Shown here: positions 1,052-10,584 of the stretch, one piece after another
Layout of the letters: every line of letters starts with the position of its first letter
How positions within the stretch are numbered: position 1 is the first letter of the stretch
IMG/VR virus record: IMGVR_UViG_2579778786_000007
Reading direction: 5' to 3' (one strand)
DNA: 31,283 nt
Source of the DNA: a virus
Taxonomy: Duplodnaviria > Heunggongvirae > Uroviricota > Caudoviricetes
The notes under the pieces: model-generated
Seen by the model: the letters and a program-made list of their open reading frames with translations, nothing else
Databases searched by the model: none
Told to the model about the DNA's origin: nothing
Translations under genes and position numbers: made by a program

Positions 1052-1071
1052 AGAGCATTTTTACTGTATGT
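1052..1071. promoter_or_regulatory. LexA-box-like palindrome (taCTGtatgtataacCAGtg) about 20 bp upstream of the int start
   Basis: CTG-N10-CAG spacing matches the SOS box consensus TACTGTATATATATACAGTA at about 16 of 20 positions; closely resembles the stronger box at 7286-7305. Confidence 0.3.
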
Positions 1072-1220
1072 ATAACCAGTGTCAATGTATGAAATCCTGC
1101 GACCATACATCTCACTGAAGCCATAATGAAGTAGGCTATTCTTTTTGCTATGTGAGCATGTAACTTTTGCGGTTAACCTGTGGCTCATTTTTATTTTAGG
1201 CGCAGATATAAAAGCAAAAG

Positions 1221-1412
1221 TTATCGTGAGTTTTTAGTACAGATTTTTTTGGATTTACTAATAGTTCCATCATTGCAAACGAATTTGCCATCAGAGGTAC
1301 AGTGAGAAACACCTCCCTTTTTCCCTGAGCAGGGATAATTTCTAGCATAGGTAGCTAGTGGGTTTAATAACAAAGAACATGACAAAACCACAAAAAATAC
1401 CTTACCAAGCAT
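1221..1412 (-). CDS. Small exported basic Cys-containing protein (63 aa), unknown function; possible lysogenic-conversion moron between cI and int
   Basis: Strong RBS (GGGAGG) 6 nt before the ATG; N-terminal hydrophobic signal-peptide-like segment ([23 protein letters not shown]); mature part Lys-rich with 4 Cys; locally AT-rich. Confidence 0.5.
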
Positions 1413-3927: not shown

Positions 3928-4781
3928 GCACCATCCTGAAATGGGCGGGAAATAAAACCGCCATTATGTCCGAACTGAAAAAACATCTTCCTGCTGGCCC
4001 GCGACTGGTTGAACCTTTCGCGGGGTCCTGTGCTGTGATGATGGAGACGGATTATCCCAGCTATCTGGTTGCGGATATTAATCCTGATTTAATCAACCTC
4101 TATAAAAAGGTTGCCGCTGATTGTGAATCGTTTATATCTCGCGCCAGAGTTTTATTTGAGATCGCAAACAGGGAGGTGGCTTATTACAACATAAGGCAGG
4201 AGTTTAATTACTCAACTGAAATTACTGATTTCATGAAAGCGGTATATTTCCTGTATCTCAATCGTCACGGTTACCGTGGTTTATGTCGCTATAACAAGAG
4301 CGGGCATTTCAACATTCCCTACGGTAATTATAAAAATCCGTATTTCCCTGAAAAAGAAATTCGCGCATTTGCAGAAAAGGCCCAGCGAGCAACGTTTATC
4401 TGCGCCAGCTTTGATGAAACGCTGGCGATGTTGAAGGCGGGAGATGTGGTGTATTGCGATCCGCCGTATGACGGTACGTTTTCCGGCTATCACACTGATG
4501 GTTTCACTGAAGATGACCAGTATCACCTGGCATCCGTTCTTGAACATCGGTCATCAGAAGGACATCCGGTCATTGTTTCTAACAGTGACACATCCCTGAT
4601 CCGTTCGCTGTATCGCAATTTTACTCACCACTATATCAAGGTAAAACGCAGCATCGGTGTGGCAGCTGGCGAGGGTAAATCAGCAACAGAAATCATTGCT
4701 GTTTCCGGGCCGCGCTGCTGGATGGGATTTGATTATTCGCGTGGCGTGGATAGTTCTGCCGTGTACGGAGTACGTGCATGA
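3924..4781 (+). CDS. dam: DNA N6-adenine methyltransferase (Dam-like)
   Basis: ATG 3924 with GGAGG 6 nt upstream, overlapping the TraR stop (ATGA); N-terminal ILKWAGNK AdoMet-binding motif and catalytic DPPY (CDPPYDGTF). Confidence 0.85.
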
Positions 4782-7192
4782 GTCATGCCGATATGAACAA
4801 CTGCTGCGGCTTTAACGAGGCTGCCGCAGCGTTCTCATGGAACAGCCCGAAAAAGGCCATTAACCCTTATCTGGACCCGGCGGAAGTTGCGCCGGTTTCT
4901 ACGCTTTCAAACCTGATCACTCTGTACGCTGCCGATAACGAGCAGGAACAGTTGCGCCGCGAGGCACTGAGTGATCAGGTCTGGGAGCGTTATTTCTTTA
5001 ATGAATCACGTGATCCTGTCCAGCGCGAAATGGAGCAGGATAAGCTCATTAGCCGGGCAAAGCTGGCGCATGAGCAGCAGCGTTTTAATTCAGACATGGT
5101 CATTCTGGCGGACGTCAACGCCCAGCCTTCCCATATCAGCAAGCCGCTGATGCAACGTATTGAATACTTCAGCAGCCTGGGCAGGCCAAAGGCTTATTCC
5201 CGCTATTTACGTGAGACGATTAAGCCATGTCTGGAACGACTGGAGCATGTACGCGACAGTCAGCTATCTGCATCTTTTCGCTTTATGGCAAGCCATGAAG
5301 GGCTGGACGGCCTGCTGATCCTGCCTGAAATGAGTCAGGATCAGGTGAAACGCCTGTCCACCTTGGTAGCTGCGCATATGAGTATGTGCCTTGATGCAGC
5401 TTGTGGTGATTTGTATGCCACCGATGACGTTAAGCCAGAAGAAATCCGCAAGACATGGGAAAAGGTGGCAGCGGAAACCCTGCGTCTGGATGTCATCCCG
5501 CCTGCGTTTGAGCAACTCCGTCGGAAAAGAAACCGCCGTAAACCCGTGCCCTATGAACTCATTCCGGGTTCGCTGGCGCGTATGCTGTGCGCCGACTGGT
5601 GGTATCGGAAATTGTGGAAGATGCGTTGCGAATGGCGGGAAGAGCAGTTGCGTGCTGTCTGCCTGGTCAGCAAAAAAGCATCTCCCTATGTCAGCTATGA
5701 AGCCGTGATGCATAAACGTGAGCAGCGCCGTAAGTCACTGGAGTTTTTCCGTTCTCATGAACTGGTGAACGAAGACGGAGACGCGCTGGATATGGAAGAT
5801 GTGGTAAACGCCAGCAGCAGCAACCCGGCGCATCGTCGCAATGAGATGATGGCCTGTGTTAAAGGTCTGGAGCTTATCGCGGAAATGCGCGGTGACTGCG
5901 CCGTTTTCTACACCATTACCTGTCCGTCACGTTTCCATTCCACGCTCAATAACGGCAGACCCAACCCGACATGGACAAATGCGACGGTAAGACAAAGCAG
6001 CGATTATCTGGTCGGTACGTTTGCTGCATTTCGTAAGGCGATGCACAAAGCCGGGTTGCGCTGGTATGGCGTGCGGGTGGCTGAGCCGCATCATGACGGC
6101 ACAGTTCACTGGCACCTGTTGTGTTTCATGCGCAAAAAAGACCGCCGCGCCATTACTGCATTGTTGCGTAAGTTTGCTATCCGTGAAGACCGTGAGGAGC
6201 TGGGCAATAACACGGGGCCGCGCTTTAAGTCTGAGCTGATTAACCCGCGAAAAGGAACGCCGACAAGCTACATCGCGAAATACATCAGTAAGAACATTGA
6301 TGGGCGTGGTCTGGCTGGCGAAATCAGCAAGGAAACGGGTAAATCCCTGCGTGATAACGCTGAATACGTTAATGCCTGGGCGTCTCTGCATCGTGTTCAG
6401 CAATTTCGCTTCTTTGGTATTCCGGGGCGTCAGGCGTACCGTGAATTGCGATTGCTGGCTGGTCAGGCGGCAAGGCAACAGGGTGACAAAAAAGCAGGTG
6501 CGCCGGTACTGGATAACCCGCGCCTTGATGCCATTCTGGCTGCTGCTGATGCTGGTTGTTTTGCCACCTACATTATGAAGCAGGGCGGCGTACTGGTTCC
6601 CCGCAAATATCACCTTATCAGAACAGCTTATGAAATTAACGAAGAGCCGACCGCCTATGGCGATCACGGTATTCGTATTTATGGCATCTGGTCACCCATT
6701 GCAGAGGGCAAGATTTGTACTCATGCAGTGAAGTGGAAAATGGTTCGTAAGGCCGTTGACGTTCAGGAGGCGGCAGCCGACCAGGGCGCTTGCGCCCCTT
6801 GGACTCGTGGCAATAACTGTCCCCTTGCTGAAAATTTGAACCAACAGGAGAAAGATAAATCAGCTGATGGGGACCCCAGAACGGACTTTACCCGCATGGA
6901 TGACAAGGAGTTGCACGATTACCTGCACAGTATGAACAAAAAGGAGCGCCGGGAACTGGCTGCAAGGTTACGTCTGGTGAAACCGAAACGGCGTAGAGAC
7001 TACAAACAGCGAATTACAGACCATCAACGACAGCAGCTCGTCTATGAACTGAAATCCAGAGGATTTGATGGCAGCGAGAAAGAGGTCGATTTACTCCTTC
7101 GCGGCGGCAGTATTCCGTCAGGAGCAGGCCTGCGTATCTTCTATCGGAACCAGCGTTTGCAGGAAGATGATAAGTGGCGGAACCTGTATTAA
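4778..7192 (+). CDS. A: Replication initiation protein A (rolling-circle replication endonuclease, P2 gpA family)
   Basis: 804-aa ORF, start overlapping the dam stop; size and position match gpA of P2/186. Confidence 0.85.
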
Positions 7193-7285
7193 TTACGCTG
7201 GTTAACAATTCGTGCTCTTAATAATACCAGGCATATCAAGCTGATAAGCGTAAAAAAAACGTTTTACATCAGTAAGATTATTATA

Positions 7286-7305
7286 TACTGTAAATATAAA
7301 CAGTG
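7286..7305. promoter_or_regulatory. LexA (SOS) box taCTGtaaatataaaCAGtg
   Basis: 17 of 20 matches to TACTGTATATATATACAGTA with correct CTG-N10-CAG spacing, in an AT-rich promoter-like region about 40 bp upstream of the orf62/DinI-like operon. Confidence 0.6.
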
Positions 7306-7346
7306 GTTATACATACAGTATTTCTTGTGGTGTCATAGGAGGAAAG

Positions 7347-7535
7347 ATGCAGGACTATTTTTTGGAGTCTTTGAAGCTCCAGCGCATTGATTTTTTTCTT
7401 AAGCTTGTAGCGGCTAGTGAGTGTAGTGATGAAGAGAAGGGGCTGGCTCTGCAGTGGGTTTCTGAATTGACTGATGAACTCATGGCAAAAATCAGAAGCC
7501 ACGAATACAACCGCTCAATGGATGTCATCAGCTGA
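7347..7535 (+). CDS. Small hypothetical protein (62 aa), first ORF of the putative SOS operon; possibly the N-terminal part of a split Tum-like gene
   Basis: Strong RBS AGGAGG 6 nt before the ATG; downstream frame overlaps the upstream-open frame of the DinI-like gene (7471-7535). Confidence 0.45.
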   Translation: MQDYFLESLKLQRIDFFLKLVAASECSDEEKGLALQWVSELTDELMAKIRSHEYNRSMDVIS

Positions 7536-7545
7536 GGTGACTTTT

Positions 7546-7779
7546 ATGCGCATTGAAATAATGATCGATAAAGAGCAGAAGATTAGCCAGTCTACCCTGG
7601 ACGCCCTTGAATCCGAGCTTTACCGCAATCTGCGCCCCCTGTATCCCAAAACGGTAATCCGTATCCGTAAAGGTAGCTCTAACGGTGTGGAACTGACCGG
7701 ACTGCAACTGGACGAAGAAAGAAAACAAGTGATGAAAATTATGCAGAAGGTGTGGGAAGACGACAGCTGGCTGCATTGA
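7546..7779 (+). CDS. DinI-family protein (phage 186 Tum antirepressor-like)
   Basis: 77 aa; MRIEI...DALESEL...WEDDSW aligns with E. coli DinI (MRIEV...DALAGEL...WESADDW); GAGGTG RBS; location after A matches the 186 SOS operon. Confidence 0.75.
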   Translation: MRIEIMIDKEQKISQSTLDALESELYRNLRPLYPKTVIRIRKGSSNGVELTGLQLDEERKQVMKIMQKVWEDDSWLH

Positions 7780-7892
7780 TTTTGTCAATAGACGCTTGTT
7801 TTTACTAATCAAAAAGGGTTACATATGAGTGAGAGGCGATGTCAATCGGATATCGCCTTGTTTTTTGTCAAGAAAAGAATAATAGGCTAAAA

Positions 7893-8570
7893 ATGAAAAT
7901 TAATAATGTAGCGTTACCAATATCTCTTGCTGTAATCCTAACTGGTTGCGTGCCACATGCTTCTAACCGAAATATCACTGCTATTGAAGTGGTGAAGCCT
8001 GCTATTGGGCAAAGTGCTACCGCCTACATGGGCGATCCCATTATCACATCTGCTACTGGATTTAAAACGGACGTACTAGAACTTGGTGCGGCTAATGGTG
8101 CATTGTCTTCTATCGCTGCTGGTACATATTGCAGTGAGGGGAATGGAATTTACCGCAATTATCATAACCCTCAAGCTGTTGCGTTAAAAAATCTCTATGG
8201 GCAAATCGGTAACTATGTTGATTATGTTAGTTACGATGCTGCAAAAAATGAGATATCACCGCCAAATGGTACTTCTTATACTGCATCAGAAATTTCTATC
8301 AAACGTGTTCCTGATGGGCTGTGTCGAGTTAGTAACTCATTGGTTAAGACTATCGAATACAATGGAAATGCAGGCGGTGTAATGAAGTTCACCTATCGTG
8401 AATTTGCAAACGATATGGCTCGTGCAGCATTTACAACAGATTTTTCTGTAGATTCTAAGGGAAGTGACGTTATCGCTTACAAAGGTGCCAAGTTCAAAGT
8501 GAACAAGGCTGATAACTCGTCTATTTCTTATACAATTATTTCTGGCTTTGACAAGGCTGTCACGTTCTAG
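7893..8570 (+). CDS. Predicted outer-membrane lipoprotein, unknown function (cargo gene)
   Basis: Signal peptide with lipobox (AVILTG|C) and no Asp at +2; AT-rich relative to the phage backbone; no recognisable catalytic motif. Confidence 0.6.
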   Translation: MKINNVALPISLAVILTGCVPHASNRNITAIEVVKPAIGQSATAYMGDPIITSATGFKTDVLELGAANGALSSIAAGTYCSEGNGIYRNYHNPQAVALKNLYGQIGNYVDYVSYDAAKNEISPPNGTSYTASEISIKRVPDGLCRVSNSLVKTIEYNGNAGGVMKFTYREFANDMARAAFTTDFSVDSKGSDVIAYKGAKFKVNKADNSSISYTIISGFDKAVTF

Positions 8571-8829: not shown

Positions 8830-10584
8830 GTGGCCTCAGTGGAACTGCAAGCAAATGCTCGAACCTTAACAAACGTGTTATCTGTAAATAAAAAATATAT
8901 AGTCCCTAGATTCCAAAGAGAATATTCTTGGGGGAAGGAACAAGTAAGTGAACTTTGGCATGATATAGTTTCCAATATTCATTACCAGGAGGATGGGCAG
9001 TATCAATATGATGAGTATTTCATCGGTGCTCTCGTTTTGGTCGGGCAGGAAACTAGCTCTGAGCTGATGATTGTAGATGGTCAACAACGTCTTACGACTC
9101 TTACTATATTGTTATCAGCATTATGTGATAAATTTAAGTTGATAAATGAGTTGGCTGTAGCTCAATCAATATATAATAATTATATATCTGGTATGGATGA
9201 CGATGGCAGACCTTTTTTTAAATTAGTTAATGAAACTCCTAAGCCATACTTTCAAAACAACATTCAGCATATTGATAAGAGAAATGAAGGACCGGAGTCC
9301 CTTGAAGAAAGAAACTTGCAATCTTCATATAATGATTTAACTGAGTATCTTTCAGAAGATAATCTTTGCCAGACATTAGGAGTAGATAGAGAGAAATTTA
9401 TCTACTTGGAAGCGTTGAAGGCTGTGCGGGATCAAGTTCTACGGTATCTGAAAGTGATTTATATTACAGTTAATGATGAAGATGAAGCTTATACAATCTT
9501 TGAAACTCTGAATGCTAGGGGATTAAACTTAAGTTATGTAGATCTTATAAAAAACAAATTATTTAAGAAACTGAATGGCACACATCCTGATGATGATGCA
9601 AAAACTAAATGGAATAAAATTAGGCAAATAATTGCTAGTCGTAATGGTGTCGGTTCTATCGAAACATTTATCCGTCATTGGTGGGTGTCAAAATATTCTT
9701 ATGTAAGTAGTGACACTCTTTATAAAGCTTTTCTGGATAAGTGGAAAAAAGGCGACATTGATGCTTCAGCGTTCATTGATGAGCTACTTTCAGATGCCGA
9801 GATATATGTGAAAATATCATCGCCTACAGAACAGGATTTTCCTGAACTGGAAATGAAACCAGTTTATCGAGGTTTGCAGGCATTAAGGCTGTTTAACATA
9901 TCTCAGAATAAACCATTTTTGTTATCTTTATTTAAGGCAAGAGCAAGAGGAACGCTAAAACTTGTTGATATGAATAATGCAGTGCTGTCAATTGAACGCT
10001 TTCATTTTATGTTTAATGCTATTTGTTCATTGCGACCATCAGGTATTGAAAGTGCGTATGCTAAAGCTGCTAGGGCTTTAGTGGATGAAGGTTCTACTAA
10101 AGCTAGTAATAGACAAGTAATAAAGTCTTTGCTTGAAATGTTGGTGAAGAGAAAACCAGACATTAATATGTTTGTTGAAAAGTTTGTTATGCTTAAATTT
10201 TCAAATCAAGAGTTGAAAAATAAAAGGTTGATTCAGTACATTTTTAATAGACTTGAGTTACATCACATGAAAACGGGGGAGTATATGCCTGATTCATTAA
10301 CATTAGAGCATATTCAGCCTCAGAGTGTGGGGGATTCTGAAGTATATAGCATGATAGGAAATTTATTACCACTTTCAAAAGAATTAAATGAAAAAGCTGG
10401 AAATAAGTCTGTTGTGGATAAGCTTGAAATTTATAAACAATCACAATATGCGCTAGTTAAAATTTTTATTGATGAATTTGAAAATAAATATCAAGGAGAA
10501 TGGACGCCCGATCATATGAGGTCAAGAGCTGCTGAACTAAGTATTTTATCGTATAATTCAGTATGGAAATTGGGGCGTGAGTAA
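8830..10584 (+). CDS. DUF262/DUF1524 two-domain nuclease, GmrSD-like (candidate type IV restriction / anti-phage defence protein)
   Basis: 584 aa. N-terminal DUF262/ParB-like motifs (PRFQREYSW; DGQQR at 9076-9090; FETLNARG); C-terminal DUF1524/His-Me-finger-like motifs (TLEHIQPQ about 10306-10320; GNLLPLSKELNEKAGNKS). Strongly AT-rich; GTG start. Confidence 0.75.
   Translation: MASVELQANARTLTNVLSVNKKYIVPRFQREYSWGKEQVSELWHDIVSNIHYQEDGQYQYDEYFIGALVLVGQETSSELMIVDGQQRLTTLTILLSALCDKFKLINELAVAQSIYNNYISGMDDDGRPFFKLVNETPKPYFQNNIQHIDKRNEGPESLEERNLQSSYNDLTEYLSEDNLCQTLGVDREKFIYLEALKAVRDQVLRYLKVIYITVNDEDEAYTIFETLNARGLNLSYVDLIKNKLFKKLNGTHPDDDAKTKWNKIRQIIASRNGVGSIETFIRHWWVSKYSYVSSDTLYKAFLDKWKKGDIDASAFIDELLSDAEIYVKISSPTEQDFPELEMKPVYRGLQALRLFNISQNKPFLLSLFKARARGTLKLVDMNNAVLSIERFHFMFNAICSLRPSGIESAYAKAARALVDEGSTKASNRQVIKSLLEMLVKRKPDINMFVEKFVMLKFSNQELKNKRLIQYIFNRLELHHMKTGEYMPDSLTLEHIQPQSVGDSEVYSMIGNLLPLSKELNEKAGNKSVVDKLEIYKQSQYALVKIFIDEFENKYQGEWTPDHMRSRAAELSILSYNSVWKLGRE

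Follow-up and report, generated by a model that had tools for sequence, protein, structure and literature searches.

Does the DNA directly behind replication gene A of a P2/186-family prophage hold a tum gene broken by a one-nucleotide insertion, or an intact operon of two genes? The question is raised by a locus in a 31,283-nucleotide stretch of viral DNA (IMG/VR record IMGVR_UViG_2579778786_000007; the whole stretch is called the window here), in which a LexA box is followed by a 62-codon reading frame, orf62, and then by a frame for a DinI-family protein. A first-pass annotation made from the sequence alone had read these as a Tum-type, LexA-controlled antirepressor module after gene A in a phage with a 186-type CI repressor, and that main reading is supported. 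It had also proposed that the two frames might be one tum gene disrupted by a homopolymer insertion, with a genuine two-gene arrangement or a sequencing error as alternatives, and here the outcome is different: the two-gene alternative is correct, and it is the one found in the literature and in GenBank (PMC3121763; AY135486).

The locus is very probably a native operon for SOS induction, belonging to a prophage of the Fels-2-like kind (P2/186 family) and built from two genes, tumA and tumB. This two-gene form of the 186-type SOS operon is already known (PMC3121763; GenBank AY135486), and accounts of the biology in 186, PSP3 and Fels-2 go back more than 20 years. The main result is accordingly a correction, in that the region should be annotated as an intact SOS operon of tumA (antirepressor) and tumB (DinI-like) and not as a frameshifted tum pseudogene. 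In public annotation the 62-aa protein is still called 'hypothetical' or 'levan regulatory protein', and a correct label helps to predict SOS-inducible P2-like prophages, the module being found in 1125 of 5426 complete E. coli genomes (about one fifth). The anatomy of the locus, its homologies, its conservation and its reading frames were determined directly in the present analysis; SOS induction and antirepressor activity of the operon would follow by analogy from the literature on its orthologues in Fels-2, PSP3 and 186.

Prophage context of the locus

The window is a P2/186-family prophage of the Fels-2-like kind. Its cI gene, on the minus strand at 1428-2003, encodes an immunity repressor of the 186 type (Pfam Phage_CI_repr and Phage_CI_C) that is the presumed target of TumA, and its replication gene A (gpA, Pfam Phage_GPA) occupies 4778-7192. 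A Dam methylase gene is also present in the window, and the portal and other late genes are predicted to lie downstream from their position and the Fels-2 annotation. The tum module begins at 7263, directly 3' of gpA, in a gene order shared with 186, PSP3, Fels-2 and metagenomic relatives. Over 651 nt the module region is 96.9% identical in DNA to Salmonella phage Fels-2, and the same region is 97-98% identical in many Klebsiella and E. coli P2-like phages; in the complete genomes of E. coli HS and at least five further, independently assembled strains the module sequence is 100% identical.

One gene or two

An ancestral tum of 143-146 aa, broken recently by insertion of one nucleotide in a run of A residues, would have left a pseudogene and a prophage that had lost SOS induction; the same appearance would arise if the extra A were a sequencing error. 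The run of five A's exists, although at 7487-7491 and not at 7486-7490 where it had been placed, and removal of one A does fuse the two frames into a conceptual ORF of 143 aa, a length near that of 186 Tum. Rare database variants, such as P0128 with its altered tail, moreover show that slippage at the run occurs. The overlap of the two ORFs across 7471-7535 is only apparent, however, the DinI frame being merely open upstream as far as an ATG at 7474 while the real start is at 7546; with that start tumA and tumB are 10 nt apart and do not overlap.

Comparison with relatives weighs heavily against a broken gene. In ten phages of roughly 70-98% DNA identity, every one has two complete ORFs, of 60-62 aa and 77 aa, with a stop for the first and a spacer, ribosome binding site and start for the second. 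Across these ten the spacers run from 3 to 13 nt and the frame offsets are 0, 1 and 2. The window, Fels-2 and Cartapus share a 10-nt spacer and an offset of +1, and a Klebsiella phage has 13 nt and the same offset; the two frames coincide in a Yersinia phage (12 nt) and in PSP3, SEN1 and SW9 (3 nt), and SEN8 and another Klebsiella phage have an offset of +2 (11 nt). Homologous phages thus consistently carry two genes, the nearest relatives with the frame relationship and spacer of the window and the distant ones with others, so that all three possible frame relationships are found.

The part of orf62 that an insertion would have turned into a spurious tail is itself conserved. Behind the A run orf62 encodes 15 residues (AKIRSHEY.RSMDV.S) that recur, unchanged or as close variants, in almost all of the best 120 homologue clusters, a few of which have truncated or read-through tails; the named clusters come from Escherichia, Salmonella, Enterobacter, Raoultella, Kosakonia, Pectobacterium, Lonsdalea, Pseudescherichia and Citrobacter. 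The DinI-fused form was found neither among these best 120 clusters nor among 87 distant representatives (about 200 clusters in total). When tail codons 48-62 were compared with four divergent relatives, the synonymous and non-synonymous changes in the tumA frame numbered 8/2, 6/2, 5/3 and 5/5, and the same stretch read in the DinI frame gave 0/9, 0/7, 1/7 and 0/9. Judged from these substitution patterns, the orf62 tail is under purifying selection in the tumA frame and not in the DinI frame. Depending on the phage, the open stretch of the DinI frame reaches only 12-75 nt back from the tumB ATG, and in the more distant relatives the frame of the would-be linker is closed 12-66 nt upstream of tumB. 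The linker that the fusion would contain, SEATNTTAQWMSSAEVTF, has no counterpart in 186 Tum, and the A run is A4 with a synonymous interruption in Kp phi12.1 and A6 in MLG42. Two-ORF relatives, conservation of the tail, the synonymous pattern and the lack of fusions among the clusters together refute the insertion, and since the same sequence recurs in complete E. coli genomes assembled independently from at least six strains, a sequencing error is excluded as well; the probability left to a recently broken tum is virtually negligible.

It might still be supposed that the two frames are joined by recoding, with +1 ribosomal frameshifting or transcriptional slippage at A5 yielding a fused, Tum-like protein alongside TumA and TumB. 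P2-like phages use programmed frameshifting in their tail genes E and E', the frames here do differ by +1, and the A run lies within a stretch that is open in both. The evidence that refutes a frameshift mutation nevertheless argues against programmed +1 frameshifting and transcriptional slippage too: the frame offset is 0, 1 or 2 according to the relative, the A run is not conserved in the two phages just mentioned, and the would-be linker changes almost only non-synonymously and acquires stops in relatives. A run of five A's is also short for efficient transcriptional slippage, and tumB has a ribosome binding site and start of its own that coincide with the DinI N-terminus. Recoding at this site is accordingly very improbable, and the two-gene reading is the one followed below.

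TumA and its relation to 186 Tum

The first gene, tumA (orf62), lies on the plus strand at 7347-7535 and encodes a predicted antirepressor of 62 aa with homology to the N-terminal part of 186 Tum. The strong ribosome binding site claimed for it was confirmed as AGGAGG at 7337-7342 (plus strand); six of seven relatives have AGGAGG at this place and Kp phi4.1 has CAGGAGG, GGAGG being invariant in all seven. The protein is 97-98% identical to Fels-2 STM2728 and to the Cartapus protein.

Homology of orf62 to the non-DinI part of 186 Tum is evident only with a broader profile and with PHROG families, and alignment to 186 Tum, which had been proposed for each frame and for their conceptual fusion, was in this respect of mixed success. 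The DinI gene matches Tum residues 71-145, orf62 is connected with Tum by profile and not by BLASTP, and the linker of the fusion has no counterpart in Tum. Pairwise BLASTP of orf62 against 186 Tum returned no alignment, and hhalign with a narrow profile of 44 sequences gave a probability of only 23.5%. Yet orf62 matches phrog_698 (E 5.9e-38) and phrog_8554, and 186 Tum matches the same two families, over residues 7-44 (E 2.4e-5) and 4-44 (1.4e-11), respectively, as well as phrog_1993, the family of PSP3 TumA. When a profile of the orf62 family was run against 1.84 billion protein representatives, 87 small proteins were recovered that share a motif of roughly x-D-hh-E-x-h-x-LQRI-x-L-h-x-RLVA-x-x-x-C-x-x-x-DKELAL-x-WIAEL, and a broad profile built from these 87 (hmmsearch) scored 33 bits on 186 Tum residues 5-43; its scores for Tum-like proteins from Erwinia phage ENT90 and the Yersinia YenM phages were 30-57 bits. 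PSP3 TumA scores only 3 bits against the orf62-centred profile and is connected with orf62 by way of 186 Tum and phrog_1993. On these sequence comparisons, orf62 and the N-terminal, non-DinI part of 186 Tum are homologues.

An AlphaFold model of TumA is a two-helix hairpin with a pLDDT of 89. So simple a fold makes structure searches uninformative, and a Foldseek comparison of the model with viral models gave nothing with E below 0.001. NCBIfam holds no model for TumA, and a literature search for TumA and TumB by name yielded nothing relevant.

The small N-terminal module recurs in several arrangements. In nearly every relative examined a TumA-like gene follows gpA directly, with a LexA box 35-67 nt ahead of it (96 nt in Kp phi12.1). 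The TumA-like part is fused to DinI in 186 and its close relatives, stands beside a separate dinI in the window, Fels-2, PSP3 and a metagenomic contig, and occurs without any dinI in ENT90, the YenM phages and two metagenomic prophages. From its occurrence with or without dinI, the small N-terminal module is an autonomous unit to which DinI is accessory, and such autonomy, as read from these gene arrangements, is consistent with an antirepressor role.

TumB and the end of the operon

The second gene, tumB, extends on the plus strand from the ATG at 7546 to 7779 and encodes a DinI-family protein of 77 aa, as had been supposed for the downstream ORF. Its match to Pfam DinI (PF06183) covers the full-length domain, with E 6.6e-23 and 81.3 bits against a cut-off of 24.2. 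Against the NCBIfam equivalog model for host DinI it scores 42.7, below the cut-off of 111, which makes it a paralogous phage DinI and not the host protein. TumB is 41% identical to 186 Tum residues 71-145, the alignment starting at the annotated internal GTG of 186, and the Fels-2 TumB protein is identical to it, with five synonymous differences in the DNA. From membership in the DinI family, TumB may be predicted to bind RecA filaments and to modulate co-protease activity.

The start at 7546 is well placed, the 77-aa product aligning with DinI models from residue 1 and the ATG agreeing with the annotated starts in Fels-2, PSP3, E. coli HS and seven other phages. It lies 10 nt beyond the tumA stop and is preceded by a ribosome binding site, GAGGTG (7534-7539, plus strand), that overlaps the stop codon TGA of tumA (7533-7535). 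A 101-aa ORF beginning at ATG 7474 was considered as the DinI gene and set aside as a mechanical upstream extension; the DinI and Tum alignments and the GAGGTG support 7546. A hairpin over the tumB ribosome binding site (7524-7541) was considered as a coupling element and dropped, as it is not conserved in distant relatives.

The tumA-tumB operon ends at an intrinsic-terminator-like hairpin with a T run at 7833-7869 (plus strand), with an 11-bp stem and a folding z of -3.0 against shuffles, placed like t95a of 186. The next gene start after the terminator is at 7893 (PGAP, PHROG). A 243-aa ORF at 7839-8570 was examined as a homologue of 186 orf97, which has the same length, and rejected (E 4.7); it is a lipoprotein-like cargo gene (phrog_1353), with its likely start at 7893.

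LexA operators and the tum promoter

The SOS box that had been noted upstream of orf62, TACTGTAAATATAAACAGTG, was confirmed at precisely 7286-7305; it agrees with the LexA consensus in 17 of its 20 positions and is the sole CTGT-N8-ACAG site in the 31-kb window. No match to the consensus with three or fewer mismatches appeared in 100 shuffles or in 300 simulated sequences, and a LexA box is present at the equivalent position in all 15 related loci checked. A probable -35 hexamer, TTTACA, is found at 7263-7268 (plus strand) and was assigned, by homology, to an SOS promoter equivalent to p95 of 186. A spacer of 17 nt divides it from TACTGT, the hexamer with which LexA box 1 begins, and it is kept in all six relatives whose aligned stretch reaches the hexamer (a seventh extract is shorter). 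By likeness to annotated p95, the -10 element of the promoter would overlap box 1. A consensus promoter scan of the window did not call the tum promoter hexamers.

A second LexA box, absent from the first-pass annotation, was observed at 7301-7320. This site, CAGTGGTTATACATACAGTA, is degenerate (GTG-N10-CAG), matches the consensus at 15 of 20 positions and overlaps box 1 by 5 nt, so that two 20-bp boxes with three and five mismatches stand in overlapping register. Only three 20-mers of the window lie within five mismatches of the LexA consensus, against 0.017 expected by simulation, and the right half of box 2, TACAG, is invariant in seven of seven Fels-2-like relatives despite variable flanks. 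Binding of LexA at box 2 is predicted. Over 40 nt the pair of boxes shares 35 positions, and its 15-nt register, with a sequence that lies about 40 nt ahead of colicin-like bacteriocin genes (ColRNAI plasmids; L017). In colicin operators, two overlapping SOS boxes bind two LexA dimers and give tight repression (PMC2994835).

Proposed course of induction

In the undamaged lysogen, LexA on box 1 (7286-7305) would cover the -10 element and keep the promoter after gene A silent, and LexA probably also occupies the weaker, overlapping box 2 (7301-7320). On DNA damage, active RecA would bring about LexA self-cleavage, and tumA-tumB would be transcribed as far as the terminator at 7833-7869. TumA, the 62-aa two-helix protein, would then bind the non-cleavable, 186-type CI and stop it from binding its operators, allowing the lytic promoter to fire, and TumB, the 77-aa DinI-like protein, would act on RecA filaments and modulate both the SOS signal and induction.

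Several observations on relatives bear on such a course. Tum of 186 blocks DNA binding by CI (PMC3121763). In Fels-2 and PSP3 tum is split in two, and the upstream gene of PSP3 has antirepressor activity (PMC3121763, citing Bunny et al. 2002). In a microarray study of Fels-2+ Salmonella treated with the mutagen MX, STM2727 was induced 5.5- to 14.8-fold and grouped with the LexA regulon, and STM2726-STM2727-STM2728 responded as an operon (PMC2225428).

Comparison with known systems

The closest counterpart is Fels-2 (STM2728, 62 aa, and STM2726.1, DinI family), in which, as in the window, ORFs of 62 and 77 aa are separated by a 10-nt spacer at an offset of +1, are preceded by dual LexA boxes, lie after gpA and are followed by a 243-aa ORF. 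The two differ in that TumA diverges at two residues and CI is only 41% identical, in that a small inserted ORF and a LexA-box promoter stand between cI and int in the window, and in the downstream cargo gene. In PSP3 (AY135486), gene A is likewise followed by a LexA box and two genes, the first of about 60 aa and the second a DinI-like gene of 77 aa. Its annotation describes tumA as 'similar to 5' end 186 tum; UV induction of prophage' and tumB as 'similar to dinI and 3' end of 186 tum'. PSP3 TumB is about 80% identical to that of the window, as estimated by eye from alignments; its TumA, however, belongs to another subfamily (phrog_1993), its two genes are in the same frame with a stop and one codon between them, and it has a single LexA box.

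Phage 186 resembles the window in the LexA box over the -10 element of p95 after gene A, in the type of its CI and in the terminator after tum. Tum itself had been described as a protein of about 146 aa with a DinI-like C-terminal part, encoded after A, and the 186 record and the alignments agree: its N-terminal residues, about 45, are homologous to TumA and its C-terminal 76 residues to TumB. In 186, however, a single fused ORF of 146 aa is found, from which a DinI-like short product begins at an annotated internal GTG, codon 71; 186 also has a single LexA box, and the 243-aa downstream ORF of the window is not a homologue of its orf97. With two ORFs that have their own stop, ribosome binding site and start, the window belongs to the split tumA/tumB variant and not to the fused form of 186.

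Outside the P2-like phages, the dinI-gfoA/gftA operons of Gifsy-1 and Gifsy-2 are also LexA-repressed and combine a small antirepressor with a DinI homologue (PMC3121763), but there dinI comes first, the antirepressor and repressor families are unrelated and the phages are lambdoid. The resemblance to double SOS boxes of the colicin type (7286-7320; 35/40 identity and the 15-nt register) is one of operators, with the difference that the predicted double boxes of the window control a prophage antirepressor.

CI and the target of TumA

The repressor had been classed as the long 186 type without an autocleavage domain, and this stands. CI aligns with 186 CI over its full length at 33% identity (E 9e-38), both Phage_CI_repr and Phage_CI_C are present, and Peptidase_S24 reaches only 16.3 bits, below its cut-off of 23.3. 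By its domain matches, then, CI appears to lack the RecA-dependent autocleavage domain, and by analogy with its relatives TumA may act on the prophage's own CI. The two proteins have diverged very unequally among related phages: against Fels-2 and Cartapus, identity is 97-98% for TumA and only 41% for CI, and CI is only 41-56% identical to that of any phage whose TumA is 84-98% identical. Given these figures, the match of TumA to its own CI is a presumed one.

This divergence allows a different outcome, in which the operon is SOS-induced and TumA is ineffective on its own CI after exchange of the immunity region by recombination, leaving perhaps a poorly inducible prophage, an action mainly in trans on other P2-like prophages or some other role. 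The cI-int region is indeed mosaic and carries an inserted small ORF between its two genes, and antirepressors that act in trans have been documented for Gifsy and Fels-1 prophages (PMC3121763). Such a mismatch is unlikely, however, on two grounds. Among phages with a TumA of this type the N-terminal DNA-binding domain of CI is far better kept (64-78% identity) than the C-terminal domain (26-41%), making a shared docking surface plausible, and the module is intact and under purifying selection in the one fifth of complete E. coli genomes that carry it. The domain pattern of CI, as seen in these alignments, fits the targeting of its N-terminal domain by TumA.

An extension of the preferred reading, in which TumA acts on its own CI, is possible, though doubtful: TumA might be an antirepressor of broad specificity that docks on the conserved N-terminal domain of CI and induces, or cross-induces, heteroimmune P2-like prophages, in a phage with a small LexA regulon of its own (tum and int). 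If so, one nearly invariant protein of 62 aa could induce and cross-induce prophages with divergent 186-type CI proteins, the colicin-like double operator would give tight, late firing of tum, and the LexA-gated promoter would serve int. The double LexA operator, the LexA-gated int promoter and the conservation of TumA against the divergence of CI offer modest leads for those who work on prophage induction.

A LexA-like box at the int promoter

Apart from the two boxes at tum, the window contains a single LexA-like 20-mer, CACTGGTTATACATACAGTA, on the minus strand at 1081-1062, which agrees with box 2 at 19 of 20 positions. Around it lies a near-consensus promoter (minus strand), TTGACA at 1085-1080 and TAAAAT at 1063-1058, with a 16-nt spacer that the 20-mer fills; this promoter stands about 27 nt ahead of the ATG at 1031 (MAVRKLTTGKW...), the likely true start of int. 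A literature search for a LexA-controlled int promoter in P2-like phages found nothing. The CTG and CAG bases of the box and the first four bases of the -35 element (TTGA) are conserved in three other phages in which int is separated from cI.

LexA-type boxes at the tum and int promoters

The tum promoter carries, in addition to the LexA box at 7286-7305 (box 1), a second, degenerate LexA box at 7301-7320 (box 2) that overlaps the first by 5 nt. This overlapping second box is present in 7 of 7 Fels-2-like relatives, whereas 186 and PSP3 are without it. The 40-nt box pair of the window matches, at 35 of 40 positions, the double SOS operator that precedes colicin-like bacteriocin genes on ColRNAI plasmids. 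Box 2 is in turn identical at 19 of 20 positions to a LexA-type box, CACTGGTTATACATACAGTA, on the minus strand at 1081-1062, which fills the spacer between the two hexamers of a sigma-70 promoter close to consensus, upstream of int (1057-1085, minus strand; TTGACA at 1085-1080, 16 nt, TAAAAT at 1063-1058). About 27 nt downstream of the promoter comes what is likely the true start of int, at 1031 (minus strand), where the RBS GGAGGG is followed by MAVRKLTTGKW...; the 5' end of the 395-aa ORF at 1-1188 has probably been extended too far. The CTG and CAG of the box are kept in Klebsiella phage 4LV2017, E. coli phage 813R9, and KP12, and this conservation, together with the position of the candidate box within the int promoter, suggests that integrase expression may be SOS-gated.

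TumA and its presumed target

TumA, the predicted 62-aa antirepressor, is 97-98% identical to TumA of Fels-2 and Cartapus, whereas CI, the 186-type repressor that is its presumed target, is only 41% identical in the same phages, and no CI more than 56% identical to the product of cI (1428-2003) was found among phage records. By domain, CI conservation is 64-78% in the N-terminal and only 26-41% in the C-terminal portion. A conserved TumA beside a divergent CI would reflect either a mosaic immunity region or recognition by TumA of a conserved N-terminal CI surface.

In a rare database variant of tumA, P0128, the tail is shifted directly after the A run (…ELMAKNQNPRIQPLNGCHQLR), as fits one extra A in that run (A5 at 7487-7491), where the first-pass annotation had suspected a 1-nt insertion. 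The product is an altered TumA with no DinI fusion; from P0128, the run is evidently subject to occasional slippage or read error. Many distant TumA-like proteins (P0146, P0157, P0158, P0176, P0184 and others; loci L029, L030) have a glycine-rich tail ending in LQ or FQ (e.g., ...KNPQNGGESGRGALQ), which TumA of the window lacks.

Accessory genes

In Fels-2, Cartapus and MLG42 the gap from cI to int is 2-3 nt, whereas here the two are separated by an inserted ORF of 63 aa (1219-1410, minus strand), a probable moron whose product has a signal-peptide-like N-terminus. After the tum terminator, a lipoprotein-like ORF at 7839-8570 (probable true start 7893; phrog_1353) has the lipobox MKINNVALPISLAVILTGC; it equals 186 orf97 in length, but with an E value of 4.7 the two are not homologous. 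A GmrSD-type (DUF262/DUF1524) restriction-endonuclease-like gene at 8830-10584, located after the tum operon and before the portal gene, is likely anti-phage defence cargo, and its position is a variable cargo site: E. coli HS has a different, shorter gene there.
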